Positions 22,760 to 39,701 of a DNA stretch of 64,000 bases are shown in pieces. This DNA is from Thermoplasmata archaeon. GTDB taxonomy: Archaea > Thermoplasmatota > Thermoplasmata > Lutacidiplasmatales > UBA184. The stretch is from positions 108,590 through 172,589 of the forward strand of contig DAHVCH010000001.1 of the NCBI GenBank assembly GCA_027314165.1, in the 5' to 3' direction. Positions within the stretch are counted from its first letter, which is position 1. Each line of letters opens with the position of its first letter. Position numbers and translations under genes: made by a program. The notes under the pieces were generated by a model. It saw only the letters and a program-made list of their open reading frames with translations, made no database searches and was not told where the DNA came from.

Positions 22760-22766
22760 GAGGAAG

Positions 22767-24245
22767 ATGCCGCTGGAATGGACCGTCGTCCTCCTGCTGG
22801 TCCCCGCGGCCTGCGCCGGACTGGTCGAGGTCGTGCCGGGTCGGTCGGCGGTGAACGCGGTCGCGATCGCCGGGGCCCTGGGCTCCCTCATCGCGGTCCT
22901 GGCGATCGTCCAGCAGGTGCTCCTTCAGGGGACTGCGACGACCCCGATGGACGCGCTCTACGTCGACGCGCTCTCGGCGGTGCTCCTCCTCCTCTTGAGC
23001 GTCGTGGGGCTCGCCTCGGTCCTGTACTCGGTGGACTACCTGGGGCGCGAAGGGAGCCCGCACTCGCTGTCGCTCCCGCAGCTCCGGAGGTACCACGCGT
23101 TCGTCCTCCTCTTCCTGTTCACGATGTTCCTGGTGGGCGAGGCGAACAACCTAGGGCTCCTCTGGATCGCCCTGGAGGGAACGACCCTGGTCTCGGCGCT
23201 CCTGGTGGGCTTCTACCACACCCGGAAGTCCATCGAGGCGTCCTGGAAGTACCTCGTCCTCTGCACCGTCGGACTGGTCTTCGCGCTCTTCGGAACGCTC
23301 CTGCTCTACCTCGCCTCGGCCACCGCGAGCGGGAGCGCGGGGGCTTCGCTCGATTGGACGGCCTTGATCCAGATCGCCCCCAAGTTCGACCCAGGGCTGG
23401 TCCGGCTCGCGCTCGTCTTCCTCTTCGTGGGATACGGGACGAAAGCGGGTTTCGCACCGCTGCACACCTGGCTGCCCGATGCCCACTCCGAGGCCCCCAC
23501 ACCGGTCTCGGCGCTGCTCTCCGCCGGCCTCCTCAAGTGCGCCATCTACGCGCTGCTGCGGGTGGACGCGATCACGCTCCGGATGCCCGGGTTCACTTTC
23601 GCGACGTGGCTCTTCCTGGGCTTCGGGGTCGTCTCCGTGCTGCTCGCGGCCCTCTTCATCCTGGTGCAACGGGACCTCAAACGCCTCCTGGCCTACCACT
23701 CGGTCGAGCACATCGGGATCATCTCGATCGGCATCGGGTTCGGGGGGCCGCTCGGGCTCTTCGGAGCGATCTTCCACATGGTCAACCACGCCGCCACCAA
23801 GGCGGCCCTGTTCCTTGCGGGAGGCGACCTGGCCGTGGCCGCGCGGACGAAGGACCTCGACGAGATCTCCGGGGCGCTGACCGCGATCCCCGCCACCGGG
23901 ACGGTCCTGCTGATCGGCGGGCTTGCCCTCGCCGGGGTCCCACCCTTCTCGATCTTCGCGAGCGAGTTCCTGATCGTCTCCTCGGGCTTCCAGGCCGGCG
24001 ACTGGGTCGTGGCCGTGATCCTGCTGGTCGCCCTGGCCATCGTCTTCGGAGGGCTGCTGCTCCACCTGACGAGCGCGCTGTTCGGACCGAAGCCCCGTCA
24101 AGGGTTCCCCGGGATCCGCGCCCGGGTGGTGGGGACCGCGCTCGCCATCGGACTGCTCCTCCCGCTCGTGGTCGGGCTGGGCTTGCTGCTCCCCAACCCC
24201 CTCGCGACGCTCCTCCACGATGCGGTCAGGGTGGTGATGGGATGA
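22767..24245 (+). CDS. Ehr/Hyf-type complex antiporter-like subunit (NuoN/NuoM/HyfF family)
   Basis: 492 aa with 14 TM helices and motifs GTKAGFAPLHTWLPDAHSEAPTPVSALLSA, typical of NuoM/N-type subunits. Confidence 0.8.
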   Translation: MPLEWTVVLLLVPAACAGLVEVVPGRSAVNAVAIAGALGSLIAVLAIVQQVLLQGTATTPMDALYVDALSAVLLLLLSVVGLASVLYSVDYLGREGSPHSLSLPQLRRYHAFVLLFLFTMFLVGEANNLGLLWIALEGTTLVSALLVGFYHTRKSIEASWKYLVLCTVGLVFALFGTLLLYLASATASGSAGASLDWTALIQIAPKFDPGLVRLALVFLFVGYGTKAGFAPLHTWLPDAHSEAPTPVSALLSAGLLKCAIYALLRVDAITLRMPGFTFATWLFLGFGVVSVLLAALFILVQRDLKRLLAYHSVEHIGIISIGIGFGGPLGLFGAIFHMVNHAATKAALFLAGGDLAVAARTKDLDEISGALTAIPATGTVLLIGGLALAGVPPFSIFASEFLIVSSGFQAGDWVVAVILLVALAIVFGGLLLHLTSALFGPKPRQGFPGIRARVVGTALAIGLLLPLVVGLGLLLPNPLATLLHDAVRVVMG

Positions 24246-25915
24246 GCGCGGGCGCACCGGACCACGGGTCGGAGGCCCCCCTCCTGTCTGCGACGCGGTC
24301 CCAGGGCGAGCGCACGGCCCCTCCCCCTCGATCGCAGGTGGAGGTCCCCGGAGCCCGCGACGAGCGAAAGTGGGTCGCCGCGGCACGGGGTGGGCCGACC
24401 CTGGAGGAAGCTGAGGAGGGCCCGTGGGAGGTGGTCGTGGCGTTGGAGCGTTGGCGCCCCTCCGTCCTGTCGCTCGTCCATGCGCTGCGATTCCGCCTGG
24501 CGACGCTCTGGGGCGAGAACGCGCACGGCGGGGACGTCGAGGTCCACGGGATCTTCCTGGGAGGGGCCGAGTGCCGGGGCGTCCACCTCCGCGTCGACCT
24601 GCCGGGAGCGGCGCGAAAGCTGCCCTCGTTGCTGCCGGACCTGCCCACGGCCCTCTACTTCGAGCGGGAGCTCTCGGAGATGTTCGGGGTCACGATCCTC
24701 GCCTCCCCCGACACCCGTCCGCTCCTGCTCCACGAACGTCACACCGCCCCTCCGATGCTGCCCGCAGGCGGCGAACCCACGGGGGTCCGTGCCCCCTTCG
24801 GGTTCCCCCGTACGGAAGGGGAAGGGGTCTACGAGGTCCCGGTCGGGCCGGTGCATGCAGGAGTGATCGAGCCCGGCCACTTCCGCTTCCAGGTGCGAGG
24901 GGAGGAGATCCTCAACCTCGAGGTACGCCTGGGCTACGCCCACAAGGGGACGGAGAGGCTGTTCGAGGGACTCGAGCCATCTCAGGCCACGGTCCTCGCC
25001 GAGTCGATCTCGGGGGACATGTCGGTCGCGGGTGCCACCGCGTATGCGCTCGCGGTGGAGGACGTCCTCGGGGTTCCTGTCCCTCCCGCCGCGCAGACCG
25101 CCCGGGGCCTGCTGCTCGAGCTGGAACGGGCGGCGTTCCTGATGGGGGATGTCGCTGGGATCATCCTGGACGTGGGGTACGCGGCCGGGGCCGCCGAGGC
25201 CAACGTCCTTCGAGAACAAGCCTACGGCACGCTCGAGCTCCTCACCGGTTCCCGGCTCGGGCGAGGGGCCGTGGTTCCCGGAGGGCTCGCTCGGCCGGTC
25301 CCGGCGGAGGCGCGAGTGGACGTGGAGCGGTCGCTGGACGCCGTCCGGCGGGGCCTCGCCGGCCTCGTCGACCACGTCCACGACCAGCCCAGCATCATGG
25401 ACCGGCTCCGAGGAACGGGGGTCATCTCGCTCGAGGTCGCCGAAGCCCTAGGCATGGTCGGACCGGCCGCCCGGGCCAGCGGTCTCGTCAGGGACGTGCG
25501 GCGGGACCGCCCTTACGGTCCCTATGTCCACGAGCGCGTGCGCGTCCGTGTCGCCTCCCGTTCCGAAGGCGACGTGGAGGCACGGTTCGAGGTGAAGGTC
25601 GCAGAGGTCCTCGAGGCCTGCCGACTCGCGCGGCACTTCCTCGGCGAAGGGGGTCCCGCGACGGGACCCCTGATCTCCTCGCGATCGGCCCGGCCCCGCC
25701 ACGGTCTCGGCATCGTCGAGTCCCCCCGCGGGGAGTTCCTGGTGGCCCTCCGTCCTTCGGAACCGGCGAAGAAGGTGCTCGCGAGGGTCCACGTCCGCGA
25801 CCCCTCCTTCCTCAATTGGCCGGCGATCGAGTACGCCGTCCGCGGGAACATCGTCCCGGATTTCCCGCTCTGCAACAAGAGCCTGAACCTCTCGTACTCG
25901 GGGTTCGACCGATGA
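24242..25915 (+). CDS. fused NuoC/NuoD-like (HycE-like) large subunit lacking [NiFe]-binding cysteines
   Basis: The ATG overlaps the upstream stop (ATGA). It has an N-terminal NuoC-like segment (LVHALRFRLATLWGEN...) followed by a large-subunit domain GPVHAGVIEPGHFRF...RLGYAHKGTERL. The position of the hydrogenase L1 motif (ERxCGICGFxHSxAY) reads ESISGDMSVAGATAY, and the C-terminus ends ...DFPLCNKSLNLSYSGFDR instead of DPCxxC. Confidence 0.8.
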   Translation: MSAGAPDHGSEAPLLSATRSQGERTAPPPRSQVEVPGARDERKWVAAARGGPTLEEAEEGPWEVVVALERWRPSVLSLVHALRFRLATLWGENAHGGDVEVHGIFLGGAECRGVHLRVDLPGAARKLPSLLPDLPTALYFERELSEMFGVTILASPDTRPLLLHERHTAPPMLPAGGEPTGVRAPFGFPRTEGEGVYEVPVGPVHAGVIEPGHFRFQVRGEEILNLEVRLGYAHKGTERLFEGLEPSQATVLAESISGDMSVAGATAYALAVEDVLGVPVPPAAQTARGLLLELERAAFLMGDVAGIILDVGYAAGAAEANVLREQAYGTLELLTGSRLGRGAVVPGGLARPVPAEARVDVERSLDAVRRGLAGLVDHVHDQPSIMDRLRGTGVISLEVAEALGMVGPAARASGLVRDVRRDRPYGPYVHERVRVRVASRSEGDVEARFEVKVAEVLEACRLARHFLGEGGPATGPLISSRSARPRHGLGIVESPRGEFLVALRPSEPAKKVLARVHVRDPSFLNWPAIEYAVRGNIVPDFPLCNKSLNLSYSGFDR

Positions 25916-26877
25916 TCGGCGGCGGGTCACCCGGGTCGGCGACGAGCAGGGGCGAGCCGAGCGCGGATCGGGAGGCGGCCCCCTCCTCACCCTCTCGCGC
26001 CCGGTCCACCGCGTCCGCTCCTCCGCGCGAGACGACCTCCGGTATCTTCGGTCCCTGCACGACAAAGGCCTACCCTCAGGGACCCGCGGAGCTGGCGCGG
26101 ATGGGGGCGAGGACCCCGTGGCACGACCCGGGTGTCTGCGAGGGCACAGGAGCGTGCGCGCGCGCCTGTCCCACGGAGGCGATCACGATCGAGGGCACGG
26201 GGCGGGGGGCCCGTCTCCGCCTCGACTACGGGGCGTGCGTCTTCTGTCGCAAGTGCGTGGACGCCTGTCCCACCGGAGCCCTGCGGGCTGTCCGCTTCTT
26301 TGAGCTCGCCGTGCGGTCGAAGGACGACCTCGTCGCTCGGCACGTGGCCGGTGGGACCCTCGGTGCGAACCCGCCCCCGAGCCAGGACAAGGTTTCCCGG
26401 GAAGTGCGCGAGCGCATCTCCCGCCTCTTTTCCGGGTCGCTCGCCGTGCGGGCGGTGGACGCTGGCAGCTGCAACGGTTGCGAGGTGGAGGTCTCCGCGC
26501 TCTCGTGGCCCGCCTACGACGCCGAGCGGCTCGGGATCCATTTCGTGGCGTCGCCACGGCATGCGGATGCGCTGCTCGTCACCGGTCCCGTCAACCGGAA
26601 CATGCGCCTCGCCCTCCAGAAGACCCTCGATGCGACCCCCGACCCGAAGTTCCTGGTCATCGCGGGGGCCTGCGGGATCTCCGGCGGACCGTTCCGCCGC
26701 TCGAAGGAAGTGGAGGGGGGCGTCCCCCCGTCGGACCTGCCCTCGGTCTGGGTCCCCGGTTGCCCTCCGCGCCCGGAAGCTCTCCTCTACGCCTTCTGGC
26801 TCGCGCTCGGCCGGGTGGAGCAGCAGCTGAAGAACGGGGAGCTTCCCCCCAAGGTCGGGGGAAGTTCCTTGAGGTAA
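25912..26877 (+). CDS. fused 2x[4Fe-4S] ferredoxin (NuoI/HycF-like) + NuoB/HycG-like small subunit
   Basis: The ATG overlaps the upstream stop (ATGA). It has two ferredoxin motifs (CEGTGACARACP, CVFCRKCVDACP), then the small-subunit motifs GSCNGCEVE, GACGISGGPF and VPGCPPRPE, i.e. all four Cys for an N2-type cluster. Confidence 0.8.
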   Translation: MIGGGSPGSATSRGEPSADREAAPSSPSRARSTASAPPRETTSGIFGPCTTKAYPQGPAELARMGARTPWHDPGVCEGTGACARACPTEAITIEGTGRGARLRLDYGACVFCRKCVDACPTGALRAVRFFELAVRSKDDLVARHVAGGTLGANPPPSQDKVSREVRERISRLFSGSLAVRAVDAGSCNGCEVEVSALSWPAYDAERLGIHFVASPRHADALLVTGPVNRNMRLALQKTLDATPDPKFLVIAGACGISGGPFRRSKEVEGGVPPSDLPSVWVPGCPPRPEALLYAFWLALGRVEQQLKNGELPPKVGGSSLR

Positions 26878-26883
26878 GGGCTC

Positions 26884-28065
26884 TTGCCGCGTGGCGTGTC
26901 TCGCCGCTCGCCCCCACCCGCGCCTGCTCCTCACCCCGGCGCGTCCCCGCTGGACCCCCATTCCCTCGGGCTCGAGCCCATCCCGCGGGTGATCCAGAGA
27001 TCGGGGGCCTCCACGCTCGTCGTGAGCCTGCCGAAGGAGTGGATCGAGCTCGAGGGGCTCCGCGCGGGCCAGTTCGTCTCCTGGGTCCGAGAGGACGACG
27101 GGGACCTCCGACTCCACCTCCCGGGGAAGCAGGTCCTTCCGACCCAGCCTAGGACCTGCGTCATCCGGACTCCCGGCCTGCGGTCGGTCGACCAGGCCCG
27201 GCGCCTGCTGTTCTCCGCCTACGTTCTGGGCTACGACCGCGTGCGGCTCGAGGACCCCGAGGGTCTGGACGAGGAGGTGCGGGCCGGGGTCGAACGGGTC
27301 AGCCACGAGCTCCTCGGGTTCAGCCTGACGGAGGCCTCCCGGACCACGCTGGTGGCGACCAGCTTCCTCGATCCCGCCGCGCACCCGGTGGCCGAGGTGA
27401 TCTCCCGGATCGGGTACACCCTGGACGTCCTCCTCGAACGCCTCGAGATGTCGCTCGCCGACGGGAACCCCAACGCGCTTCAGAGGGTCCCCGAGGTCCG
27501 CGTCGAGGTCCGGCGGCTCCACGCCCTCGCGCTCCGGCAGCTCAACCTCGCCGCGGCGAACCCACGGCTCGCGCGGCAGCTCGGCGTGAGCCGGCCCAGT
27601 CACCTTCTGGGTACCCGGGTCGTCGCGAAGCTCCTCGACGACATCGCGGACGCGGTGGAAGCCGTGGCGGGAGAGCTCTCCCGAATCGGCCGGGCTCCGC
27701 TCTCCGCGCGTCCGGTGCTGGAACAGATCCGAGGTCGGGTCCAGTCGCTCCGGGAGCGGCTGCGGCTCGCCCTGGGCGCCTTACGCTCCGGGAGCGCCAT
27801 AGAAGCGGAGCATGTCCTGGCCGCGCGCAGGGAAGCTCTCGAACGGTTTCTCGGGACCGAGGCCAAGCTCCGACGGATGACCGGTCCCTCGAGCCTGCGG
27901 CACTCGCTGGCCCTCGCCTCCTGGTGGGTGGGGGTCGCCCGTCAGCACGCCGAGGCGGTCGCCGAGGTCGCCTTCACGCGCGCCCTGGACCGCAACCCTT
28001 CCGTCCTGGACCTTTCCTCTTCCGGAGAGAAGAGGTTCAGCGTAAGTTCCGACCCGTCCGGATAG
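26884..28065 (+). CDS. PhoU-domain regulator with N-terminal SpoVT/AbrB-like swapped-hairpin domain
   Basis: The N-terminus IQRSGASTLVVSLPKEWIELEGLRAGQFVSWVRED is AbrB/MazE-like. The remainder is helical with two PhoU-like repeats. The gene starts 7 nt after the Ehr-cluster stop. Confidence 0.5.
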   Translation: MPRGVSRRSPPPAPAPHPGASPLDPHSLGLEPIPRVIQRSGASTLVVSLPKEWIELEGLRAGQFVSWVREDDGDLRLHLPGKQVLPTQPRTCVIRTPGLRSVDQARRLLFSAYVLGYDRVRLEDPEGLDEEVRAGVERVSHELLGFSLTEASRTTLVATSFLDPAAHPVAEVISRIGYTLDVLLERLEMSLADGNPNALQRVPEVRVEVRRLHALALRQLNLAAANPRLARQLGVSRPSHLLGTRVVAKLLDDIADAVEAVAGELSRIGRAPLSARPVLEQIRGRVQSLRERLRLALGALRSGSAIEAEHVLAARREALERFLGTEAKLRRMTGPSSLRHSLALASWWVGVARQHAEAVAEVAFTRALDRNPSVLDLSSSGEKRFSVSSDPSG

Positions 28066-28194
28066 GATGGCCTCGGGGGGGCGCCGCTCCACGTCCCCGT
28101 CGAGAAGGTCCCCCATACAATCCGGACTATCCGGTGCGCCGTCAGAAAGACCGGTGACGTCCTAGCATGGATAGCAGTCCTGCAGGAGCGTTCG

Positions 28195-28476
28195 ATGGCG
28201 AAAAGGTACCGATGCCGGTTGATGGGATGGAAGTGCGGCTATGTCATGACGGCGCCTACGGTCACCGAGCTGATCCCCCGCGTCGAGGAACACCTCCGGA
28301 GCGCCCACAACCTCGCGGTCGTGCCCCAGGACATCCGTTTGAAGGTCGATTCCGCGGTGCAAGAGTATACGGACCGAAGGGCGACGGGAAGGCCCTCCTC
28401 GGCGGCTCCTGCTCTCTGCGCGGCCCCGTCCCCTGCCGGGCCCGCCACCCCCGCCCCCTCGTCTCCGCCGACCTGA
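28195..28476 (+). CDS. DUF1059-like small metal-binding protein (paralog 1)
   Basis: Small ORF with MAKRYRCRLMGWKCGYVMTAPTVTELIPRVEEHLRSAHNL, showing the Cys pair plus a conserved EHxxxxH arrangement of the DUF1059 family. It is tandem to a paralog. Confidence 0.5.
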   Translation: MAKRYRCRLMGWKCGYVMTAPTVTELIPRVEEHLRSAHNLAVVPQDIRLKVDSAVQEYTDRRATGRPSSAAPALCAAPSPAGPATPAPSSPPT

Positions 28477-28503
28477 GACGTCCGACTCCCGAAGGGAGGG
28501 CCG

Positions 28504-28737
28504 ATGGTCTTCATCTTCCGATGTCCAGGAGTGGACGCCCAATGCCCCTTCACGGCTTCAGGGCTCACGATCAGCGCGATGTGGCCCGAGGTCTTGGAGC
28601 ACTTGCGTACGGCTCACGGGGTCGCCCGGCCGTATCCGTCGCTGCTGAGCCGTGTCGACGGGGGATTCTGGCTTGAGGCCGACAACACGATCGCCACCTC
28701 TCGCGCCCGGGCCGTCGGCTCGGTCCCACCCATCTGA
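28504..28737 (+). CDS. DUF1059-like small metal-binding protein (paralog 2)
   Basis: MVFIFRCPGVDAQCPFTASGLTISAMWPEVLEHLRTAHGV has the same Cys-x6-7-Cys...EHLRxAH architecture as the upstream gene. Confidence 0.5.
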   Translation: MVFIFRCPGVDAQCPFTASGLTISAMWPEVLEHLRTAHGVARPYPSLLSRVDGGFWLEADNTIATSRARAVGSVPPI

Positions 28738-28933
28738 CCCTCCGGTCCCCTGGACCTGGGGCGCCCTCTCCACAGGTCTGTCGTGGGAGCCCGAGGCGGG
28801 TCCTCGGGGCTCGAGGGGCCGCGTCCGGGGCCCGTCACCTCTCCTCGATGGAACCTCTCGGAGGTAACGTCGGGCGCGGCATCCTTCAAATAATGGCCCG
28901 GCTAACATACATGGTGGCCCCGGCCCGAGGGCC

Positions 28934-30595
28934 GTGCGCGCCGAATCGGGGACGTTCCATTGTCCAGCGCAGCACCCGGGGGGAGCTAGCCCGATGGCCG
29001 CCCCGTACCAACCCCCGCCGCCCCCTCCCTCCGATCGACCCCTCTCCGATCAGGGAAGCGCGGGTCCGCAGTCCATGCAGGGCTCCTGGGGTACGACCTC
29101 GGGGCCTACGCAGCGCCCCCGCCACGTCCTGGTGCTCGACATCTCGAAGAGCATGCTCGCTCCCCTTCCGGACCCCAGCGACCCCAGCCGGGTCCGGAGG
29201 AAGATCGAGGTCGCCCGGGCCGCGACCTACCGCATCTTCGAGACGGTCCAGTCCCAGGGAGCGATGTTCGGGCTGGTCATCTTCAACAACGTGGCCCACG
29301 TCGCGATCCCCCTCACCGAGATCCGTCCGGAGATCCGCCCCGCGCTCGACAATCTGGTGGCTCTCCTGCCCCCGAAGGGACGGTCCGCGATCTGGGACGC
29401 GCTCGCCCTGGGCGCGGACCTGCTGCGCGTAGAGGGCGGAGCGACCCACGGGAACCTCGTCCTGGTGACCGACGGGTGGGACAACATGTCGCAACGGTTC
29501 GGGGCCCCCGGCATCGACCTGCCCCCGCCCCCACCCCCGGGGTCCCCTCCGGGAACTTCCCCCCCTCCTCGCGCCGACATCCTCGCCTACCTTCTCACCC
29601 AGGGCAGCAGGCTCGGGCTCCGCATCATCGGGATCGGGAGCGGCGTCGAACGGGACAAGGGGGTCGACTCCCAGAGGATGCGCGCCTTCACGGACGCCTA
29701 CGCCGCCCGGACCCAGGCGTGGAGACTGGGCTGCACCGTCTCCTACGAGGAGGTCACGACGAGCGAGGAGCTCTTCTCCCGCATGGTCCAGGCGTTCGTC
29801 GACATCCCATTCGAGGACGCCATGGCGGTGGAGAACCTCCACCCCGACGAACTGGCAGAGGCGGCAGCCTCGGCCGCCCGGGCGCTGCGCGACTCCGACG
29901 GGAAACGCAGCGTGGTGGGCCACCTGGCTTCCGGCAAAGGTACCGGCGCCGCCGGGAGCCCCGCCCCCGGGACCCCCTCCCAGCCGGGGATGGAGGTCGA
30001 CATCCTGAGCCCGCAGGCCGGTCACTCCGCGGTGAACCTGAGGGACCGTTACGGGCCCCTGGGAGAGGTCGCGGAGGCGTACATGGCCCGCGATTGGGCC
30101 AGGGCCCAGGCCATCCTGTACCAGAAGGGAGGCCTCATCGCCCCCGTCACCCGGTTCTACTGGCAGGCGCGCGTCTACTTCGCGCAAGGAGAGAAGGGGG
30201 AGGCGGGCCGCTACCTAGCGCAAGCCTGGTCGGAGGCCGAGGCGCTACCCGTCGCGGACCGGGGCCGGGTCGTCCGCCGGCTCGCGCTGCTCCAGGCCAA
30301 GGTCACCGGCGACAGGGAGACGGAGAGCCTGGTCAGCTTCTACGACGCGGCCGAGACGAAGGCCCGGTCGCTGGGCAGCGGGCTCGGCGACAAGCTCGAA
30401 CGGATGTTCGACCGCATCCTGGCGCTGAGGGGCACCTACGCGACGGTGAAGGGAGGGGGCGCGGCCGCCCACGAGGAGCTCGTGGAGGAGATCTTCGGAC
30501 TGCTCCAGGACGCCCGCCTCGCCAACACCCAACGCGAGCCCGCCATCGACGCGTTCCTGGACTTCGTGGAGATCGCCCTCGCAGAGATGCGGTAG
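28934..30595 (+). CDS. von Willebrand factor A (vWA) domain protein with Pro-rich linker and C-terminal alpha-helical (TPR-like) domain
   Basis: Has the vWA MIDAS start HVLVLDISKSMLAP (DxSxS) with a downstream T (LVTDGWDN), a PPPPPPGSPPGTSPPPR linker and a ~250-aa helical C-terminal domain. A TATA-like TTCAAATAAT lies at 28886-28898. The start is GTG at 28934 or ATG at 28994. Confidence 0.7.
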   Translation: MRAESGTFHCPAQHPGGASPMAAPYQPPPPPPSDRPLSDQGSAGPQSMQGSWGTTSGPTQRPRHVLVLDISKSMLAPLPDPSDPSRVRRKIEVARAATYRIFETVQSQGAMFGLVIFNNVAHVAIPLTEIRPEIRPALDNLVALLPPKGRSAIWDALALGADLLRVEGGATHGNLVLVTDGWDNMSQRFGAPGIDLPPPPPPGSPPGTSPPPRADILAYLLTQGSRLGLRIIGIGSGVERDKGVDSQRMRAFTDAYAARTQAWRLGCTVSYEEVTTSEELFSRMVQAFVDIPFEDAMAVENLHPDELAEAAASAARALRDSDGKRSVVGHLASGKGTGAAGSPAPGTPSQPGMEVDILSPQAGHSAVNLRDRYGPLGEVAEAYMARDWARAQAILYQKGGLIAPVTRFYWQARVYFAQGEKGEAGRYLAQAWSEAEALPVADRGRVVRRLALLQAKVTGDRETESLVSFYDAAETKARSLGSGLGDKLERMFDRILALRGTYATVKGGGAAAHEELVEEIFGLLQDARLANTQREPAIDAFLDFVEIALAEMR

Positions 30596-30653
30596 GGTCT
30601 CGGGGGCCAAAGCATATCATGAACGTTCACGTGAGAAGAAGGAGCCCTCCAAG

Positions 30654-32033
30654 ATGAGCCCCCCCAACCCCACGAAAGGTGCGAACAAGAAGCGACCCGC
30701 CGACGCGGCCGCGGCTCCGCCGGCGCCTGCTCCCGCGCCGCCTCCCCCTGCGCGCGCGCCCGCCCCCGAGCCTGCACCGGCCCCGACCGCGCCCGGCGAA
30801 GCTCCGGTCGAGCCGGAACCCGCCATCCCGGCGCCCGTGGTCCGCAAGGTCGTCCCAGGGTCCGTTCCACCCCCGGAGAGGAGGGCCCCGCCGCCACCCC
30901 CCATCCGCCCACGAAAGGCCCCGGAGCCGGAACCGCCGGAACCTCCGCCGATCGGGGCCAAGATCGCCGTGGTCGGGATCCCCGCTTCGGGGAAGACCAC
31001 CTACTTCCGCTACCTCTCCGGTCACTTCGGGCTGAACCTGCCTCTGGTCTACGTCCCCAGCCGCTCCGGCTCGGTCATCCCCCTCTTCGGGGACATCGGG
31101 AACGAGGTGGTGATGGAGGAGACCACCTACGAGTCCGACCCCAACAATCCCGCCGCGGCGATGGACACCACGACGCGCCTCTACGTCAATCGGCCGATGG
31201 AGGACCCCACGCGGCTCTTCGTGGAGCTCGCGCAGGGACAGGAGGAGCAGGGGATCCTGACCAAGTATCCCCTTCCGACGAAGTACAACCAGTTCGTCGA
31301 GATGAAGCTCAACTTCCGGTACGGGGTCGCGGGGAACCTCGCCCAGGCGAAGCCGATGGTCCTTAGGACCGTCGACGAGGCCGGGGGGATCATCTCGGAC
31401 TACTTCACCTACGACCGCCTGTGGATCAACGCTCCTACCGAGGAGGTCCCGGTCGAGAAGTGCCGGGTCATCCCGCGCTTCGACACCTGGAAGCCCGACC
31501 GCCAGGAGCTCTGGCGACGCGGGCTCACCCTGATGGGAAGGTTCACCGTCGACGCCGACGGCATCATCCTTCTCCTCACCCCGCAGCTGGGCTCGCTCAG
31601 GGACAGCGCCCAGCAGGTGAACCTCGCGCGGGGGGTCTTCCGGTACGCGCGGCAGCGGGGCATCCCCGTGGTGATCGCGATATCGAAGGCCGACCTGCTG
31701 AAGGAGTTCTACCTCGAGGTGGAACAGGTCCTGACCAATCGCGGGTACCTCTCAGGGTTCGACAGCAACCGGTTCCTCACCGAGCGCGACGGAAGCGGGC
31801 TCGGGAGCATTCTCGCGGCCCAGGAGGGCCGCGGGTTCTCCACGAAGGAGGACGCCTACCTGGTCGCCTCGGCGATCTCCACGGGAGAGGGACGACCTCT
31901 CCTCTACGGGGACACGGCGGACGTCGACCTCAACAACGGTGCGACCGCGGGAGTGCCCGTGATGGTCAACACGACGCTCCCCCTCGCCCGGATCTGCGAG
32001 CGCGTGCTGACCGAGCGCGGCGACCTGAGCTAG
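30654..32033 (+). CDS. TRAFAC-class small-GTPase-like protein with Pro/Ala-rich N-terminal IDR and large inserted domain
   Basis: Has G1 AKIAVVGIPASGKTTY, G3 RFTVDADGII (DxxG) and G4 VVIAISKADL (NKxD-like SKAD). There is a ~110-aa PAPAPAPPPP-type N-terminal region and a ~190-aa insertion between G1 and G3. A TATA-like GCATATCA lies ~38 nt upstream of the ATG. Confidence 0.7.
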   Translation: MSPPNPTKGANKKRPADAAAAPPAPAPAPPPPARAPAPEPAPAPTAPGEAPVEPEPAIPAPVVRKVVPGSVPPPERRAPPPPPIRPRKAPEPEPPEPPPIGAKIAVVGIPASGKTTYFRYLSGHFGLNLPLVYVPSRSGSVIPLFGDIGNEVVMEETTYESDPNNPAAAMDTTTRLYVNRPMEDPTRLFVELAQGQEEQGILTKYPLPTKYNQFVEMKLNFRYGVAGNLAQAKPMVLRTVDEAGGIISDYFTYDRLWINAPTEEVPVEKCRVIPRFDTWKPDRQELWRRGLTLMGRFTVDADGIILLLTPQLGSLRDSAQQVNLARGVFRYARQRGIPVVIAISKADLLKEFYLEVEQVLTNRGYLSGFDSNRFLTERDGSGLGSILAAQEGRGFSTKEDAYLVASAISTGEGRPLLYGDTADVDLNNGATAGVPVMVNTTLPLARICERVLTERGDLS

Positions 32034-32042
32034 GGGCGGGGC

Positions 32043-34640
32043 ATGGACGCGCCCAGGCCCGTGCCCGCTCCAGGGACCCCCGCGGCTCCCTCGAGACCGG
32101 CCGGGGCGGGTCCGTCCGGCGGAAAGGACCGGGGACTGGTCTCCGTCGTCTGGTGCCGCCAAGTGGACAACGAGGCCGAGAGCCCGGGATACACGACGGT
32201 CCCGACGGAGTTCCCGGGCCGGAAGGAGACGCTGGACACCGTCCGGGTCGTCGGGAACCTCGCGATCAACGCGGCCGACACCCACGACTACTGGGACCCG
32301 GACCCCACGAGCAAGCTCGCCTACTACCACAACCTGTTCCTCTATCCCGCGAACGGAGGGCAGTACCTCTGCCTGGGCCGGATGTTCCTCTCCACCGAGG
32401 ACCGACCTCGGCTCGGGATGAAGACGCTCATCCTGGACGCCTCCGCGCTGCTCGAGTCGGAGAACCTCGGGCTCGTCCTGCGGCGATGGTACAGCTCCAT
32501 GGGCAATCCCGGTCGCGGCGCGCAGACGGAGGGGCGGGCCGACCCCGCGATGATGGACGCCCTCTCCGACGCGTTCGTGTTCCTACGGCTGGACCCCGGC
32601 CGGCCGTTGGTGGGTCTGGTCTCGGACAACTTCCACGACGCGGTCGAGGGAGTGCTCACGCTGCTCGAGCGCATGCCCTCCTCCGTTGCCCTTCTCGGAG
32701 GGTGTCTCATCTTCCCGTACTTCCTCCCCGTGGGACGGGTCCAAGTGGCGGAGTTCGCCGAGACCTTCCCGCTGACCCTGGCCCTCGCCCGGATCCCCCG
32801 CAACGAGGCGGGGGGAGACCGCCACGTGAAGCGCGTCTCGGCTTGGGCCTCCCAGGGCGTCCACCTCCTCGACCTGACCCAGGGGCTCCCATCTGAGGTC
32901 CGTTCCCGCCCCGCGGCCGGCCCTCCGATCTCCTGGTGGTGCAAGGGCGACCGGCCGGAACTGATCAACGACCTGCGGAGAGCGGTGGACCGCGTCGAGC
33001 TCCCCCGCCTCCGAGAGTCGGAGCAGAAGGGGAGCCTCCGGAGCGGGTCGGAGCGGCGCCGGGAACTTGCCCGGCTCGCCTCCGCCATGAGCTCGATCTC
33101 GCTCGCGCTGCAGAGGCCTCCCTCGGAGCGGTCGACCCTGGGCGTGGAGGTCCTCCGCACCGTGCAGCCCTACCTCCAAGCGCTCTCCGCAACGGCCGGG
33201 TCTCCCGCAGAAGGGGTACGCACTCCGGGAACCCTTCCCGAAGCCCCATCCACCGGGCCTGCCGCGCCTTCCGTGGTCCCGGTGGGCGGCATCGTCGTGA
33301 CCCCGCCCTTGGGGATGCCCCCGAAGAGTTCGAGCTCGCAGGAGGAGCCCCCCTGGCGCAGGGCTCCTCGGCTCCGTCCGGAGCGGTCGGAGGTGGTGCC
33401 CGTCCCTCGGGGGGCCCCCGGGGGCGAGGGGCCCCCCGGGGACGAACGGGTGGGCGCCGGGTCGGCGGCCGCTCCTCCCGTGCCACCGGGCGTCGACCGA
33501 AACCCTCCGTACGGCGACCTCGCCGGGGCGTCGCCGCCCCCCGCCGCGGTACCCGGCCTGCCGCCCGCGCTCCTCGAGGAGCTCCGGTCGTACATCGACT
33601 CCCGGATCGGAGAGTCCCGCGTGCGCGTCGGCGACCTCGACCCCGACGTGGTCGGCGGGCTCGAGCGTGATCTGGAACGGCGACTGGAAGCGCGCGCGCG
33701 GCTCCTCGTTTCCCCAGAGGCGCTGGAGGCGCGGGTCGTGGAGATCCTGGCCCGAAGGCCCCCCCCACCCGCACCGGACCCCCAGGACCTCCTGAACGAC
33801 GCGACCAGGGGCGCCCTGGCCGAGGTCGTGGACGCCCTCGTTGCCGAACGAATGGCGGACGCGACCGCAGGCGGCAACGCGGGAGCCTCCTCGTCGGCCG
33901 AGGACGACCTCTCGAGGTTGGACGACCGCGTGGTGGCGCTCCTTTCGAAGGACCCGGACGACCGGCGCGTCGCGGCCTTGCTCGACCAGCGCATCCAGGA
34001 CTACGTCGCCTCCTCCGCGCAGGCGGACCGAAAGGCGACGGACGACCGTCTCGACCTCATCCTGAAGGAGCTCCAGTTGCGGGCGAAGTCCCAGACGGAG
34101 CTCGAGGCGACCATCCGGTCCGAGGTCCGGTTCCTGGACGAGAAGCTCCAGACGCTGATGGGTCGGATGATCCCGCTGCTGAAGCGGACCTGGCTCAAGA
34201 TCGACGAGCTCGAGAAGCGCCCCGCCGGCGCGGGGGGCGCCTCCGATCAGAAGATGAAGCGCCTGCGCGACGAGCTCTGGAGGGAGATGAAGCGCATGGA
34301 GATCGACCTCTCGGAGCGCACGCGCCTCATCCTCGACCGGGTCGAAGGGAACATCCAGAACCAGGGGAAGCTCTGGCTGACGCTGGTGGGCCAGCTGTCC
34401 TCGCTCGCCGAGCAGCGGCGCGAACTGGAGAAGATCGTGCACGAGTCGAAAGAGGACTTCGAGGTTCCCGCGGAGGACGGCCCCCTGCAGGTCCCAGAGG
34501 AGACCTCGGAGGAAGACCGGGCGGACGAGGCCCCGAAGCCGACGACCACCGCGGCGCAAACAGGGAAGGCGACCGCGCAGAGGAACAGGGGGACCGAGAA
34601 GGACCCTGCTCCTTCGAACCGGACCGCGCGGGCCAAGTAA
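32043..34640 (+). CDS. large coiled-coil protein: N-terminal ~290-aa globular domain, Pro-rich linker, ~400-aa coiled coil
   Basis: The ATG lies 9 nt after the GTPase stop (operonic). The N-terminal domain (VVWCRQVDNEAESPGYTTVP...LILDASALLESENLGLVLRRWY) has no family I can name. The centre is Pro-rich (PPLGMPPKSS...PPVPPGVDRNPPY). The C-terminus has heptad-rich E/R/L/K repeats (DRLDLILKELQLRAKSQTELEATIRSEVRFLDEKLQTLMGRM...). Confidence 0.55.
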   Translation: MDAPRPVPAPGTPAAPSRPAGAGPSGGKDRGLVSVVWCRQVDNEAESPGYTTVPTEFPGRKETLDTVRVVGNLAINAADTHDYWDPDPTSKLAYYHNLFLYPANGGQYLCLGRMFLSTEDRPRLGMKTLILDASALLESENLGLVLRRWYSSMGNPGRGAQTEGRADPAMMDALSDAFVFLRLDPGRPLVGLVSDNFHDAVEGVLTLLERMPSSVALLGGCLIFPYFLPVGRVQVAEFAETFPLTLALARIPRNEAGGDRHVKRVSAWASQGVHLLDLTQGLPSEVRSRPAAGPPISWWCKGDRPELINDLRRAVDRVELPRLRESEQKGSLRSGSERRRELARLASAMSSISLALQRPPSERSTLGVEVLRTVQPYLQALSATAGSPAEGVRTPGTLPEAPSTGPAAPSVVPVGGIVVTPPLGMPPKSSSSQEEPPWRRAPRLRPERSEVVPVPRGAPGGEGPPGDERVGAGSAAAPPVPPGVDRNPPYGDLAGASPPPAAVPGLPPALLEELRSYIDSRIGESRVRVGDLDPDVVGGLERDLERRLEARARLLVSPEALEARVVEILARRPPPPAPDPQDLLNDATRGALAEVVDALVAERMADATAGGNAGASSSAEDDLSRLDDRVVALLSKDPDDRRVAALLDQRIQDYVASSAQADRKATDDRLDLILKELQLRAKSQTELEATIRSEVRFLDEKLQTLMGRMIPLLKRTWLKIDELEKRPAGAGGASDQKMKRLRDELWREMKRMEIDLSERTRLILDRVEGNIQNQGKLWLTLVGQLSSLAEQRRELEKIVHESKEDFEVPAEDGPLQVPEETSEEDRADEAPKPTTTAAQTGKATAQRNRGTEKDPAPSNRTARAK

Positions 34641-35665: not shown

Positions 35666-36580
35666 GCCCCCGAAGGAAACCCCCGCGGGCGCGCCTCCTC
35701 GACGAGCGGGTGCGGCGATACTACCTCGGATACGACGAGGAGGGACGTCTCGCGAAGGACCCGTTCCATCGCCTGGAGTTCGACACGACGCTGCGGTACC
35801 TGGAGCGCGTCCTCCCCCCCCCGCGGCCACATCTTGGACGCAGGGAGCGGACCGGGGCGATACGCGGTGGCACTCGCCCGACGGGGGCACACCGTGTCCC
35901 TGATCGACCTCATGCCGGAACACGTGGAGGCCGCGCGGCGTGCAGCCGCACGAGCTGGGGTCGCGCCCGATCTCCTCGACTTGCGGTCGGGTTCGTTGGA
36001 CGACCTGTCTTTCTTCCCCGATTCGGGGTTCGCAGGGGTTCTGTGCCTCGGGTCGGCGCTCGGCCACCTTGTGGACCCGGTCCGTCGGGCCCGCGCCTTG
36101 CGTGAGCTCTTTCGCGTCGCACGCCCGGGAGCCCCGGTCTTCGTCTCGGTCATCGGCCGGCTCTGTCTGCTCGGCTCCAGCATGCTCGCCAACCCCGGAG
36201 AGTGGCAGGTGGACCCGGCGATGTACCGCCGCATCGAGCGAACAGGGGACTACGACGGCCATCGGGGGTTCGCGCCCTGCCACTTCTTCCTGGTCGAAGA
36301 GCTTCAGGAAGAGATGCGAAAGGCCGGCCTCACGATCGAGACCACCGTCGGGCTCCAGGGGCTCGTCCCACCCTACCCCAAGCAGATCTCCTCTGCCGCC
36401 CGAAGATACCCCAAGGCGTTCCGGGCCTGGTTGGAACTCCTCTACAGGTCCTGCGAAGACCCCGCGGTCGTGCCCTTCAGCCAGCACTTTCTCGTGATAG
36501 GGCGGAGGCCCGGGAGTCTCCCGGTCGGTCCGGAGGGACGTGGGGGACGGTCCCGCCGCGATTCGCGGACCTCCGGATGA
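35662..36580 (+). CDS. class I SAM-dependent methyltransferase (Methyltransf_11/12-like), reading frame interrupted at a poly-C tract
   Basis: The N-terminus MSPRRKPPRARLLDERVRRYYLGYDEEGRL...RYLERVLPPP (frame 1) continues as RGHILDAGSGPGRYAVALARRGHTVSLIDLMPEHV (motif I, frame 2) after a 9-C run at 35814-35822. One missing or extra C restores a single ORF. Confidence 0.6.
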
Positions 36581-36707
36581 TGGATGGGCGGTCCGGAGCA
36601 GGACCGGGAACCCCTCGCCGGCTTTCGACCGAGAAGCAAGGAGAGAGCGTGAGCGGCGACAATTCACGCGTACATTCCTTAATATCAATGGGACCGGTCG
36701 TGAACTC

Positions 36708-39701
36708 GTGCCCTGGCGAGGAGAGACTTCCCCGCAACCCCGGCGCCGCCTTCCACTCCGCGTCCGGTCGATCCTCGCTTGCGCGGTCCTGATCCTCCTG
36801 CTGACCGTGCTTCAGGGGCAGTTGGGTGGGTGGGCCTCGGCGCGAGCTCCGGCCCTGTCCATGCCTCATGCGGGGCCCTCCGGTTCGGCCGGTGTCCCCT
36901 CCGCCTCTCATGCCGCCACCGTGGTGAGCCGACCTGCGACGGCCACGGGTTCTCCGACCAGCGGTGGGTTCATGGGGGCTCTCACCGGCTTCCTTTCCGC
37001 GATCTCGCACCGCCCCTCGGCGGGTCCTCCCCTTCCGAACATCACCGGGGGGAACATCACCGGGTTCTCGCTGGCGATGGTCGGGGTGGGGCTCACCGGC
37101 AATTCGGGATTGCAGTTCTCCTCGGCCATCGGGGAGATGCCCAGCGGTGCGAACTCCTCGACCTACCTCTTCTCGCTCCTCGGGGAGACGGTGAGCACCA
37201 ACTCCACGGCCTTCGTAGGGTACATCGAAGGGTCGCTCGGCGGGATCACGGGCGCGCTTCCGCTCTATCTCGTGCTCAACGGGACCACCCTCGGCGCCTG
37301 CGGGTTCGGAAGCTTCACCAGCGTCATGCTCCCGGGGCCGACCGTCCATCAGTTCTCGATGGTGCAGGACCACGGGTACTGGTGGAACTTCCTCTTGGAC
37401 GGCTCGATCATCTCCGGCGGCTCCGGCCTGGGGGGCACCGGGAGCTTCTGTGCCGGGTCCGGCAACGGCACGGTCGACCTGTATGCGTCGGCCACTGCGC
37501 TCCTGTTCATACCGCTGTACGCCTGGATCCTCTCCGCGAACGTTTCGGGGTTCGTCGGCTCCACCGTTCAGACCGTCTCGGAGTACCGGACCGGGACCAC
37601 GTGGACCCAGTCCATCTCGGGCATTGTGGTCACCGACACCTCCGTCGGGCTCGCGGGGTACGACCAGGACAGCACGATACCCCCGGACCAGGTCCAGGTG
37701 GGGCCCCCGCGCACGGTGCTGAACAGCACCACTGCCGTCTGGAGCACCGGACCGCTGCCTTCCTTGACGCTCGACGAGCAGGGCGTACCCTCGACCATGT
37801 ATGCTGGGCAGACGGTCGACCTCACGGCGTGGGTCAATGACAGCTCGACCAAGGTCGGAGTGGGTACGGCGACCCTCTCCCCGACGTCCAGCTCGGGCGG
37901 CAGCTTCCTGATGACCGGGTCCGGTCCGTCCGCGGGAGAGTTCCACCTTTCGTATGCGGCACCGCTCCCCGCGAAGCAGGACAATCTGACCCTTCTCGCC
38001 ACGGGTCCCGGGTACGTCGGGGTCCGGCACACCTACGTCCTCACGATCGCCCCCGTCCACCTGGTCTTCTCGGCCCATCCCCCGTCCGGGCCGCTCTTCT
38101 CCGGCGCCACCCGGAGCGTCCCCTTCACGATCAACGCCAGCTACGGCGTGCCGTTCTCCCCTGCCCAGGTGTCGGTCTCCGTCCGGGGCGGAGGCACCGC
38201 GACGGTGCTGTCCATTCCGGCGTCCTCGGTCGGGTCCTATGTCGTCGAGCTGACCGCGCCGATGTTCAACGAGCCCTCGATCTCCGCCGTGACCATCACG
38301 GGGTCGGGTCCTGGCGTGGTCACCCAGTCGACCACCTTCAGCGTGCGGATCGAGCCGCGACCCCTGGCGGTCCTCGGACCGACCGGAGGGTTGGTGTGGG
38401 CTGGGGCCCGACTGTCCTTCAACCTCTCCCTATCGACCCCGTCGGGCGCGCTTCCGAGCGTGACGTCCACCTGGTGGAACGCGACGGTCAGGAACGCGAG
38501 CGGGACCGACCTCCTGACAGTGGGTGGCGGGGCCTCGATCACCCCGCACGACGGATGGGCTTCCCTCCAGGTGGCACTTCCCGCACACTACGTGGGCCCG
38601 CTGTGGTTCTGGGTCAACGTCTCCGCTCCCGGGTTCAACCAGACCGTCTCCAGCTGGTGGGAGAACGCGACGGGCAACCTCTCGTTGGAGCTCCAGGGCC
38701 TTCCCGCCGTCATGTCCGGCGGCGACCATGCGACGCTGACCTTGCGAGTCCTGGGCCTCGGAGGCGTCCCGATCTATGGGGCACCGGTGGTGTGGTCCGC
38801 GAACTTCGGTGGGTTCGGTTCTGCCGACCTCCCGACCGTCACGGGATACACCGATGTGAACGGAGCGACGTCGGTCAGTTTTGTCGCCCCTAGCGTGGCC
38901 AACACGACCGACATCGATGTCTCCGCGGCCGTCCTATACCCCTACTACACGGCGGGTCACGCGGTGAGCTCGGGCACGGCCGCGCCCTCGGCAGGGGGCC
39001 AGCTCGGGAGCGGGATCGACAACGGGATGGCCATCATCGACCTCCTGCTGGCGCTTGTCGTGCTGGCGCTCATCCTGGCCATCTTCGCGGAGTCGCGAAG
39101 CCGCCACGAGCGCGAAGCCCGAAGTGCGGCAGCGACCGGGGCTGTCGCCATGCGGCCATGGGCCTCGTCCGATCCCAGCGAGGAGCTCGGGTCGGAAGGG
39201 AAGGCTCCGTGGCCCGGCGGGACCAGCGCGAAGTACGTGGAGGAGGAGCTTGGAGCGTCCGACCACCCTCCCGAGCCCGCCGCTCCCAAGGCCGACCCAT
39301 CCCCGAAGGGAGCGAACGGTTCTCCCGGACAGGAGCCTAAGGCGAGCACGAGCGCCCGATCGCCCGCCGAGACCTCGGAGGAGCTCGGGTCGGAGGGGAA
39401 CTTCCACGGGACCTCTGGAGACCCCGCGGGCGGGGACTCGGGGGACGCAGCTCCGGGAGGGTCCCCCGCGGTGGGCGGACCCTCGACCCAGTCCAGTTCC
39501 CCGTCCCCCACCCCCGAGGCTCCTTCGGCTCCATCGGCTTCTTCGGCGCAGTCCGCCGGCGGGGAGGAGAAGGTTCCGGTTTCCGAGGAACCCACGAGCG
39601 CGGAGTCCACGACCTCCGGGAAAGCGATGGCCGGGTCCTCCTCCTCGAAGCCGGTAAAGGCGAAGAGGACGCCCAAGACCCGCTCCGGCCCTTCGGATTA
39701 G
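36708..39701 (+). CDS. archaeal cell-surface glycoprotein (S-layer-like): signal peptide, Ser/Thr/Gly-rich ectodomain with many N-x-S/T sequons, C-terminal TM anchor and acidic tail
   Basis: An N-terminal RRR + hydrophobic stretch (SILACAVLILLLTVL) follows a GTG at 36708, and a TATA-like TTAATATCA at 36679-36687 is ~27 nt upstream (leaderless). There are more than 20 sequons (NITGGNITG, NSST, NGTT, NVSG, NLTL, NASY...). The C-terminal TM is IIDLLLALVVLALILAIF, followed by a charged S/E/P-rich tail. Confidence 0.65.
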   Translation: MPWRGETSPQPRRRLPLRVRSILACAVLILLLTVLQGQLGGWASARAPALSMPHAGPSGSAGVPSASHAATVVSRPATATGSPTSGGFMGALTGFLSAISHRPSAGPPLPNITGGNITGFSLAMVGVGLTGNSGLQFSSAIGEMPSGANSSTYLFSLLGETVSTNSTAFVGYIEGSLGGITGALPLYLVLNGTTLGACGFGSFTSVMLPGPTVHQFSMVQDHGYWWNFLLDGSIISGGSGLGGTGSFCAGSGNGTVDLYASATALLFIPLYAWILSANVSGFVGSTVQTVSEYRTGTTWTQSISGIVVTDTSVGLAGYDQDSTIPPDQVQVGPPRTVLNSTTAVWSTGPLPSLTLDEQGVPSTMYAGQTVDLTAWVNDSSTKVGVGTATLSPTSSSGGSFLMTGSGPSAGEFHLSYAAPLPAKQDNLTLLATGPGYVGVRHTYVLTIAPVHLVFSAHPPSGPLFSGATRSVPFTINASYGVPFSPAQVSVSVRGGGTATVLSIPASSVGSYVVELTAPMFNEPSISAVTITGSGPGVVTQSTTFSVRIEPRPLAVLGPTGGLVWAGARLSFNLSLSTPSGALPSVTSTWWNATVRNASGTDLLTVGGGASITPHDGWASLQVALPAHYVGPLWFWVNVSAPGFNQTVSSWWENATGNLSLELQGLPAVMSGGDHATLTLRVLGLGGVPIYGAPVVWSANFGGFGSADLPTVTGYTDVNGATSVSFVAPSVANTTDIDVSAAVLYPYYTAGHAVSSGTAAPSAGGQLGSGIDNGMAIIDLLLALVVLALILAIFAESRSRHEREARSAAATGAVAMRPWASSDPSEELGSEGKAPWPGGTSAKYVEEELGASDHPPEPAAPKADPSPKGANGSPGQEPKASTSARSPAETSEELGSEGNFHGTSGDPAGGDSGDAAPGGSPAVGGPSTQSSSPSPTPEAPSAPSASSAQSAGGEEKVPVSEEPTSAESTTSGKAMAGSSSSKPVKAKRTPKTRSGPSD

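Follow-up and report, generated by a model that had tools for sequence, protein, structure and literature searches.

Switch GTPases with dedicated regulators are rare in prokaryotes, and those that exist are relevant to how the GTPase networks of eukaryotes arose. One such pair consists of MglA, a small, Ras-like bacterial GTPase of about 195 amino acids, and MglB, a single roadblock domain that serves as the GTPase-activating protein (GAP) of MglA. In Asgard archaea, an operon encodes a LAMTOR1-like roadblock protein, a Rab-like GTPase and a DENN protein, and until that report DENN had been known only from eukaryotes (bioRxiv 10.1101/2020.10.19.343400). In the DO-GTPases, which belong to the TRAFAC class, Walker B contains a Glu, and a three-domain GAP1 protein follows the GTPase; related systems repeatedly include vWA domains (Kaur et al., 2020, PMC7159879). 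Here we describe a GTPase gene on a stretch of 64,000 nucleotides (the window) from a Thermoplasmata archaeon of the Lutacidiplasmatales (GenBank assembly GCA_027314165.1, contig DAHVCH010000001.1, positions 108,590 to 172,589 of the forward strand). The gene (30654..32033, + strand; positions are those of the window throughout) is the middle one of three on one strand, following the gene of a vWA protein and preceding that of a large coiled-coil protein.

The GTPase superclass and the concept of a longin-regulated GTPase are already known. What is new is a family that matches no model, a pattern of three insertions in the G domain, a DEAGG Walker B motif and a fixed trio of vWA, GTPase and coiled-coil genes; no description of the family or of the three-gene operon was found in the literature searched. 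The locus resembles the Asgard operon in that the GTPase gene is directly followed by one for a protein with a predicted longin, α/β and helical head. It differs in its host, which belongs to Thermoplasmata, in its GTPase, which is not Rab-, Arf- or Rag-like and has DEAGG as G3, in having a vWA protein with a metal-ion-dependent adhesion site (MIDAS) instead of a roadblock protein, and in the fusion of the DENN-like head to a long coiled coil. With MglA and MglB it would share the arrangement of a prokaryotic switch GTPase co-encoded with a roadblock/longin-class regulator, but here the G domain is twice as large, the putative regulator has about 1000 amino acids and a vWA protein is added.

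The GTPase and Its G Motifs

The window has a G+C content of about 70%, and long spurious open reading frames are therefore frequent in it. The open reading frame of 459 amino acids at 30654..32033 is a genuine gene; a protein identical to its product is recorded in a Thermoplasmata metagenome-assembled genome (MAG), and a Shine-Dalgarno-like AAGGAG stands ahead of its ATG. At least 349 homologues with 60–87% identity are on record. In an alignment of 120 of them all five G motifs are present, in the right order and invariant, the invariant positions being G108-T116, T203, T209, D241-G245, S344, K345, D347, S406 and A407. In an AlphaFold2 model of residues 96–459 built from 120 sequences (mean predicted local distance difference test score, pLDDT, 80.8; predicted template modelling score, pTM, 0.86), the motifs fall straight after β1, β3, β5 and β6.

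G1, the P-loop GIPASGKT (residues 108–115, 30975..30998, +), follows β1. The candidate for switch I and G2 is GILTKYPLPTKYN (residues 200–212, 31251..31289, +), in which nearly all residues are invariant; no other segment of the protein is as conserved as the loop containing GxLTKYPLPTKxNQF, and either T203 or T209 may be the Mg2+-binding Thr. The pLDDT of residues 193–209 is low, as is expected of a nucleotide-dependent loop. G3, or Walker B, is DEAGG (residues 241–245, 31374..31388, +) at the end of a long β2–β3 hairpin, and DEAG (241–244) is invariant together with its flanks, TxDEAGGIISDYFTY. The Walker B Asp is followed by an invariant Glu, and a Gly stands at the place of the catalytic Gln of Ras, so that catalysis would need the Glu after the Walker B Asp, a residue supplied by a partner, or dimerisation. 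G4, the guanine-specificity motif, is SKAD (residues 344–347, 31683..31694, +) directly after β5, with a Ser where [NT]KxD has Asn or Thr. G5 is SAI (residues 406–408, 31869..31877, +) after β6.

G1 and G3 are 133 residues apart, and G1 and G4 are 236 residues apart as against 102–106 in H-Ras and Arf1. Compared with these two proteins, the excess is about 86 residues between G1 and G3, 44 between G3 and G4, and 30–33 between G4 and G5. The extra length of the G domain is thus made up of three insertions, not one. Insertion 1 (residues ~128–199, 31035..31250, +), the largest, lies between α1 and switch I, where G-alpha has its helical domain. It comprises four β-strands predicted with moderate confidence (model positions 49–51, 57–65, 76–83 and 92–94 by DSSP; pLDDT 72–82) and contains two invariant motifs, EETTYE and TxRxYV. 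Neither its fold nor its sequence gave a match that would identify it. Insertion 2 (residues ~254–299, 31413..31550, +) occupies the switch II/α2 region ahead of β4 (DGIILLL) and has six invariant residues, W257, C270, W279, R283, W287 and R288. Insertion 3 (residues 348–400) consists of short helices ahead of G5.

An earlier reading made from the sequence alone, without database searches (the sequence-only reading), had named Walker A within VVGIPASGKTT and a G4-like ISKAD, and both are present, ISKAD at residues 343–347. It had put about 300 residues between G1 and SKAD and a DxxG about 250 residues after G1, and had proposed a single large insertion between G1 and G3. That the spacing is far above that of small GTPases is true in kind, while the distances were mis-measured because G3 had been mis-assigned, and the single insertion gives way to the three described above. 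DxxG occurs at residues 241, 300 and 379. DADG at 300 was rejected as G3, as D300 is not conserved and the motif is on β4, and so was DGSG at 379, which is located after G4.

The gene begins with a disordered, Pro/Ala-rich tail (residues 1–101, 30654..30956, +) that is missing from most homologues. The sequence-only reading had called the first 110 residues almost pure Pro, Ala and Glu; residues 1–100 are of low complexity, but these three amino acids make up 68% of them (40, 20 and 8%), so that “almost pure” was overstated. Nor is such a tail a trait of the family: among 74 homologues the usual tail has a median length of 29 amino acids and is about 30% Lys/Arg, and P/A-rich tails of 100–120 amino acids are restricted to the window's own subclade. 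At the DNA level the tail has only weak tandem repeats with units of 21 and 9 nucleotides. Pro-rich low-complexity stretches without counterparts in homologues are also seen in the vWA protein, as an insertion at 29507–29575 (residues ~172–194), and in the coiled-coil protein, at 32043–32130 and 33189–33720. Since both neighbours are also Pro-rich, the tail is read as a trend of the high-GC genome or lineage, and it looks like a lineage-specific low-complexity expansion of a short basic tail.

Fold and Placement Among GTPases

The signature of TRAFAC GTPases is an antiparallel β2 beside β3, together with a switch I Thr and an NKxD-type motif. In the model, β1 (103–108) is followed by G1, α1 (114–127) and four short strands (144–189), and then by a long antiparallel hairpin (213–242; model strands 118–130 and 133–147) that ends in DEAGG. 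After the hairpin come helices with insertion 2, β4 (303–308), α3, β5 (339–343) and SKAD, and the chain closes with the short helices of insertion 3, β6 (401–403), SA and a C-terminal helix. This predicted structure has a P-loop after β1, a DxxG ending β3, a switch I Thr, and G4 and G5. The model thus supports assignment of the protein to the TRAFAC class, with a G domain enlarged to about 355 amino acids. Since its G1–G5 motifs are intact, it most likely binds and hydrolyses GTP. The GTPase identity proposed in the sequence-only reading is supported by the invariant, correctly placed motifs, the antiparallel hairpin and the matches of the fold to GTPases.

No Pfam, NCBIfam or PADLOC model matches the protein at threshold. 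The recurrent sub-threshold Pfam matches across the 120 members sit on the P-loop (AAA_18, ATP_bind_1 and DO-GTPase2), and the only one reaching beyond it is GTP_EFTU, which covers β4-α3-G4 and whose profile positions 93–151 align at G4 in 104 of the 120 members, still below threshold. Might the protein then be a P-loop ATPase of the AAA or KAP type, the case that the sequence-only reading had named as fatal to its proposal? Matches to AAA_18 and AAA_22 would speak for it, but they cover the P-loop and adjacent residues only, with scores far below gathering, and the invariant SKAD after β5, SA after β6, DxxG after an antiparallel hairpin and GTPase fold matches all indicate a TRAFAC GTPase. 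Neither profiles, motifs nor fold bear out an ATPase, which we consider scarcely credible.

When sequences in the PDB were searched with the single sequence and with the family profile, the only matches, to FeoB and Der, stayed at the level of the P-loop. Alignment of the family by hhalign with H-Ras and Arf1 (for this and the other hhalign comparison the reference sequences were entered by hand) likewise covered the P-loop only. A search of 1.84 billion representatives with the family profile returned 13 proteins, none from outside the family: one full-length cluster and fragments of the same GTPase family. Judged by these sequence searches, the family is a single tight cluster without detectable relatives.

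A small GTPase of the Ras superfamily, in which the G domain is compact with about 170–200 amino acids, was considered and rejected. No match to Ras, Arf, Roc, Gtr1_RagA or SRPRB of Pfam at E ≤ 1 was found in the window protein, none recurs among the 120 members, and TIGR00231 matches the P-loop only, with 17 bits against a cut-off of 42.5. Three homologues bear the automatic JGI names ‘SAR1 family’ or ‘SR-beta’, which no profile supports, and the others are named ‘hypothetical protein’. The ‘SAR1’ names prompted an analogy with Sec23/24, which has a vWA trunk, and Sar1; it was dropped because there is no Arf/Sar match and because, in Pfam, the vWA protein matches vWA models only, no other Sec23/24 domain being detected.

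In a Foldseek search of the PDB, the best match of the model is YcjX (DUF463; PDB 6nz4, 6nz5 and 6nz6; E 3.7e-6, probability 1.0), the sixth-best is a septin (E 1.3e-4), and EF-Tu follows at E ~1e-3. Other matches are the GPN-loop GTPase Npa3, GBP2, Irgb6 and, at low probability, kinesin motors. YcjX resembles the GTPase in that both have G domains enlarged with insertions. It differs in that the template modelling score (TM) is 0.27–0.34, the root-mean-square deviation about 15 Å and the identity 12–13%, no Pfam YcjX match occurs in any of the 120 members, and YcjX is bacterial and stress-induced.

The matches to septins and to the dynamin/GBP class bring up the possibility that the GTPase assembles with itself, forming a dimer or polymer across the nucleotide site and acting with its coiled-coil partner as a cytoskeletal or membrane-shaping scaffold, in which assembly, and not a separate GAP, would set off hydrolysis. 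G4 of septins is AKAD. With these proteins (fold matches at E 1e-4 to 5e-3; the septin has the best TM on target, 0.41, and GBP2 and Irgb6 are also matched) the GTPase shares an xKxD-type G4, an association with a coiled coil and, as in the dynamin/GBP class, a large G domain, here with three insertions; moreover, DEAGG lacks the catalytic Gln, as in many GTPases activated by dimerisation. On the other side, no Pfam septin, dynamin or GBP match is found even at E ≤ 1, the TM is low, and neither the septin-unique element nor the dynamin middle and GED domains were identified. We regard a self-assembling GTPase as unlikely, though evidence from its partner and from its conservation, given below, also bears on it.

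The Three-Gene Locus

The sequence-only reading had suggested that the GTPase family may have a regulatory or effector domain built into it. The stronger regulatory signal lies outside the GTPase gene itself, in two fixed partner genes. By tblastn over 82 loci of different species, the trio is complete and in order in 81 of them, the exceptions being genes cut by contig ends. In the window the gene of the coiled-coil partner begins 9 nucleotides past the stop codon of the GTPase gene, and elsewhere the two overlap or abut; they are probably co-translated. Scans for promoters and terminators of the bacterial type found nothing, archaeal promoters being outside the reach of such scans. No transmembrane segment was found in any of the three proteins.

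The block S19e-PDCD5-L39e-L31e-eIF6-(S17e), in which S17e is on the opposite strand, directly precedes the trio at about 60 of 85 loci, and the block DUF2116-CTP_transf_like-77-aa protein-(DUF5611)-peptidase M50 comes after it. The subclade of the window departs from this arrangement: there the trio has been relocated intact and is found downstream of complex-I-type (NADH-dehydrogenase/Mbh-type) genes, a gene for AbrB-PhoU and two for DUF1059 (window ~20650–30600, compared with L002, L083–L085 and about 60 other loci). As the trio stays intact after relocation, the linkage holds among the three genes themselves.

The upstream gene (28994..30595, +) encodes a protein of 533 amino acids that matches VWA_2 (E 3.8e-8; 34.4 bits, cut-off 27) and VWA (E 7.3e-5) of Pfam. 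Its MIDAS motif DxSxS is D49-I-S-K-S53 (29138..29152, +), in columns at least 95% conserved among 60 homologues, and the companion motif TDGWD (residues 159–163, 29468–29482, +) is conserved. The vWA domain is N-terminal; the C-terminal half, about 200 amino acids long, is conserved and mostly helical and ends in LAEMR. On its sequence, this is a cytoplasmic vWA protein with an intact MIDAS, and the closest sequence in the PDB is a BatA-like vWA (4rck, E 2.7e-4).

The presence, beside a P-loop NTPase, of a MIDAS-vWA protein whose C-terminal half is helical recalls MoxR-vWA pairs such as BatA/BatB and CoxD-CoxE. Accordingly, the trio could be imagined as a maturation or chaperone device like MoxR-vWA, CoxD-CoxE or Rea1-MIDAS, in which the MIDAS would hold a client and the GTPase would power its insertion, release or remodelling; the client could be related to the ribosome or eIF6, given the usual neighbourhood. 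The BatA-type domain, which is normally paired with MoxR ATPases (PMC7159879), and the position directly after the ribosomal and eIF6 genes favour this idea. But the NTPase here is a TRAFAC GTPase, of another fold class than AAA+ MoxR, eIF6 is separated from the trio by S17e, which runs on the other strand, the trio remains intact when away from the ribosomal and eIF6 genes, as in the window, and no client is identifiable. A maturation device thus seems a long shot.

The Downstream Coiled-Coil Partner

The downstream gene (32043..34640, +), present in 81 of the 82 loci, encodes a protein of 865 amino acids in the window and 560–1300 elsewhere. Its N-terminal domain, about 350 amino acids long, is globular and highly conserved. 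After this come a linker that is rich in Pro and contains a PPW motif, a coiled coil whose length varies widely, and a conserved helical module at the C-terminus (TWLKIxELEK ... NQGxxWL), which in most homologues is followed by a basic tail, usually RRRxRR. The window protein has no Pfam match, and 24 homologues gave only sub-threshold matches or coiled-coil noise; nothing significant came from NCBIfam and PADLOC scans, and a profile search of the PDB gave only matches of the apolipoprotein-repeat type.

The head, modelled by AlphaFold over residues 30–385, is predicted with high scores (pLDDT 92.1, pTM 0.92). It starts with a longin-like subdomain (residues 32–179, 32136..32579, +) in the order β-β-α-β-β-β-β-α-α-α, the extra element being a strand of three residues. 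An α/β subdomain of four β-α units (residues 189–279) and a helical bundle (284–382) follow (together 32607..33188, +). The DENN module is tripartite, with a longin in the order β-β-α-β-β-β-α(-α), then an α/β core and then an all-helical part (PMC3521125). The predicted head therefore resembles DENN in its tripartite layout.

The top full-length Foldseek match of the head to the PDB, 7mge_C from the C9orf72-SMCR8-WDR41 complex (E 0.011, TM ~0.19), is not significant. The eukaryotic longin/DENN regulators C9orf72-SMCR8, FLCN-FNIP, GATOR1 and DENND1B are, together with the Asgard operon, among the closest known systems. Among the 20 best matches, five are chains from structures of GTPase regulators that contain longins: 7mge_C, Lst4, two chains of a Lokiarchaeal roadblock-longin and GATOR1. 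The matches of the longin-like subdomain to such longins are weak.

Two loops of the longin-like subdomain are invariant: the β1-β2 loop WCRQVDNEAESPGY (32151–32192, +), which is the most invariant stretch of the partner, and the β4-β5 loop STEDRPRLG (32391–32417, +). In the longins with GAP activity, C9orf72, SMCR8, FLCN and NPRL2, the WD/GP motifs of the catalytic pocket are in the loop before β2 (PMC12290439). The WCRQVDNEAESPGY loop is positioned like this WD/GP loop, a likeness of position and not a test of homology.

Most homologues of the partner (P0131–P0240) have 200–450 extra residues of repeated amphipathic helices, which weakly match apolipoprotein A-I/E (best Pfam E 8.5e-4, in 4 of 24 members; PDB profile E 1.3e-4). 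The repeats could serve in lipid binding or could merely reflect coiled-coil composition. The window protein, whose central part is 33189–34442, and its close relatives are without most of this region. A partner that is a long, variable coiled coil, with apolipoprotein-like amphipathic repeats in many homologues, would suit a self-assembling GTPase of the septin or dynamin/GBP kind; self-assembly leaves the longin-like head of the partner unexplained.

Distribution and Conservation

When one genome of each GTDB species was scanned, relatives of the GTPase turned up in 150 species. The 80 loci retrieved are all from uncultured Thermoplasmata, save one record titled ‘bacterium’, and the hosts include Ca. 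Lutacidiplasmatales and Ca. Lutacidiplasma silvani. The exception (locus L079; DAIDCO010000028.1, ‘bacterium isolate clean3188’) has a complete trio with 66% identity and is probably a mislabelled Thermoplasmata MAG. In the description of the order Lutacidiplasmatales there is no mention of a GTPase, FtsZ or a related term. The gene appears to be single-copy apart from one MAG, YP2.bin30, which has two copies on different contigs (L005 and L008, which are 99 and 70% identical to the protein of the window), most likely due to a mixed bin rather than true paralogy.

Between one reference genome and 50 species, the median identity is 76% for the GTPase, 62% for the vWA protein, 66% for the head of the partner and 43% for the full-length partner. 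The values for the ribosomal and initiation-factor proteins are 82% (L31e), 81% (L39e), 75% (S17e), 66% (eIF6) and 64% (S19e), so that the GTPase is more conserved across species than eIF6 or S19e. The trio is under constraint comparable to that on ribosomal proteins, that is, of a housekeeping level.

This level of constraint bears on another possible relationship, namely that the trio is a divergent anti-phage or conflict system akin to DO-GTPase-GAP1 or the vWA ternary systems. The Glu in Walker B (DEAGG) and a downstream protein with three subdomains do parallel DO-GTPase-GAP1, and 45 of the 120 members give sub-threshold matches to DO-GTPase2. These matches cover only 14 residues of the P-loop, with 11.8–14 bits against a cut-off of 27, so that the similarity stays at P-loop level; no GAP1 Pfam model and no PADLOC model is matched, no variable effector gene accompanies the trio, and its context is fixed and of a housekeeping kind. 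Conservation equal to or above that of ribosomal proteins is the opposite of what conflict systems display. Kinship with these systems is highly improbable, and the trio is not a defence system.

Some neighbours of the trio in the window deserve mention. Between the complex-I-type genes and the DUF1059 pair, a gene at 26884–28065 (+) encodes a DNA-binding domain of the AbrB/MazE type (SpoVT) fused to a weak PhoU-like region. The tandem DUF1059 genes just upstream of the trio (28195–28476, 93 amino acids, and 28504–28737, 77 amino acids, both +; Pfam E 2e-12 and 4.5e-5) are arranged in this way only in the window's subclade (L001 and L003). A few kb downstream of the trio, past GNAT and methyltransferase genes, a large protein without a Pfam match is encoded at ~36540–39701 (+; 16319–19039 in L001; 906 amino acids as called).

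Possible Function of the Trio

What could such a GTPase do with its two partners? Our favoured reading, for which we find about as much reason for belief as for doubt, is a housekeeping GTPase switch whose cycle is controlled by the longin-type head of the probably co-translated partner; the MIDAS-vWA protein would join the two as a third subunit or an adaptor. The GTPase would be a subunit of a lineage-specific three-protein module in Lutacidiplasmatales-type Thermoplasmata and would work as a nucleotide-dependent switch. The longin-like head of the partner would control GTP hydrolysis, nucleotide exchange or both, probably making contact through its invariant WCRQVDNEAESPGY and STEDRPRLG loops, and R121 or R123 of the partner are candidates for an arginine finger. 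The long, variable coiled coil and the basic tails may set the position or the spacing of the complex on a cellular surface, a membrane or a nucleic acid, and the MIDAS of the vWA protein may clamp a partner or client protein by an acidic residue.

Several points weigh against a switch governed by a longin-type regulator. The GTPase fold matches all have a TM of 0.34 or less on the query. The DENN/longin assignment comes from a predicted structure for which no Foldseek match is significant, and no support for DENN or longin was obtained from Pfam, from the PDB profile search or from hhalign against C9orf72. Physical interaction among the three proteins is suggested by gene order alone. The conservation of the GTPase, which is exceptionally high over the whole protein, is typical of filament formers, and its extent across the surface fits a self-assembling polymer equally well. 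The hosts are uncultured, and the function is read from sequence and models.

The finding of the GTPase is solid and unusual, while a DENN-like regulator outside the Asgard-eukaryote lineage, which is read from the model, is unproven. A bolder version of the switch reading, which we think possible if rather doubtful, is that a lineage of non-Asgard archaea, the Lutacidiplasmatales-type Thermoplasmata, has an essential-looking machine composed of a previously unknown family of large GTPases, a true longin-DENN regulator carried on a coiled coil and a MIDAS-vWA adaptor. If this is true, the logic of GTPase and DENN/longin known from eukaryotic traffic exists beyond the Asgard-eukaryote lineage, by ancient inheritance or by transfer, and the machine would control a structural process such as the organisation of membrane, division or envelope. 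Even the DENN-like reading by itself, if it holds, would add a data point on the spread of longin-type GTPase regulation. The overall profile of the GTPase family, with no detectable sequence relatives among the 1.84 billion representatives, a constraint of ribosomal level within its lineage and two locked partners, fits a core, undescribed system in abundant uncultured archaea of soils and hot springs.

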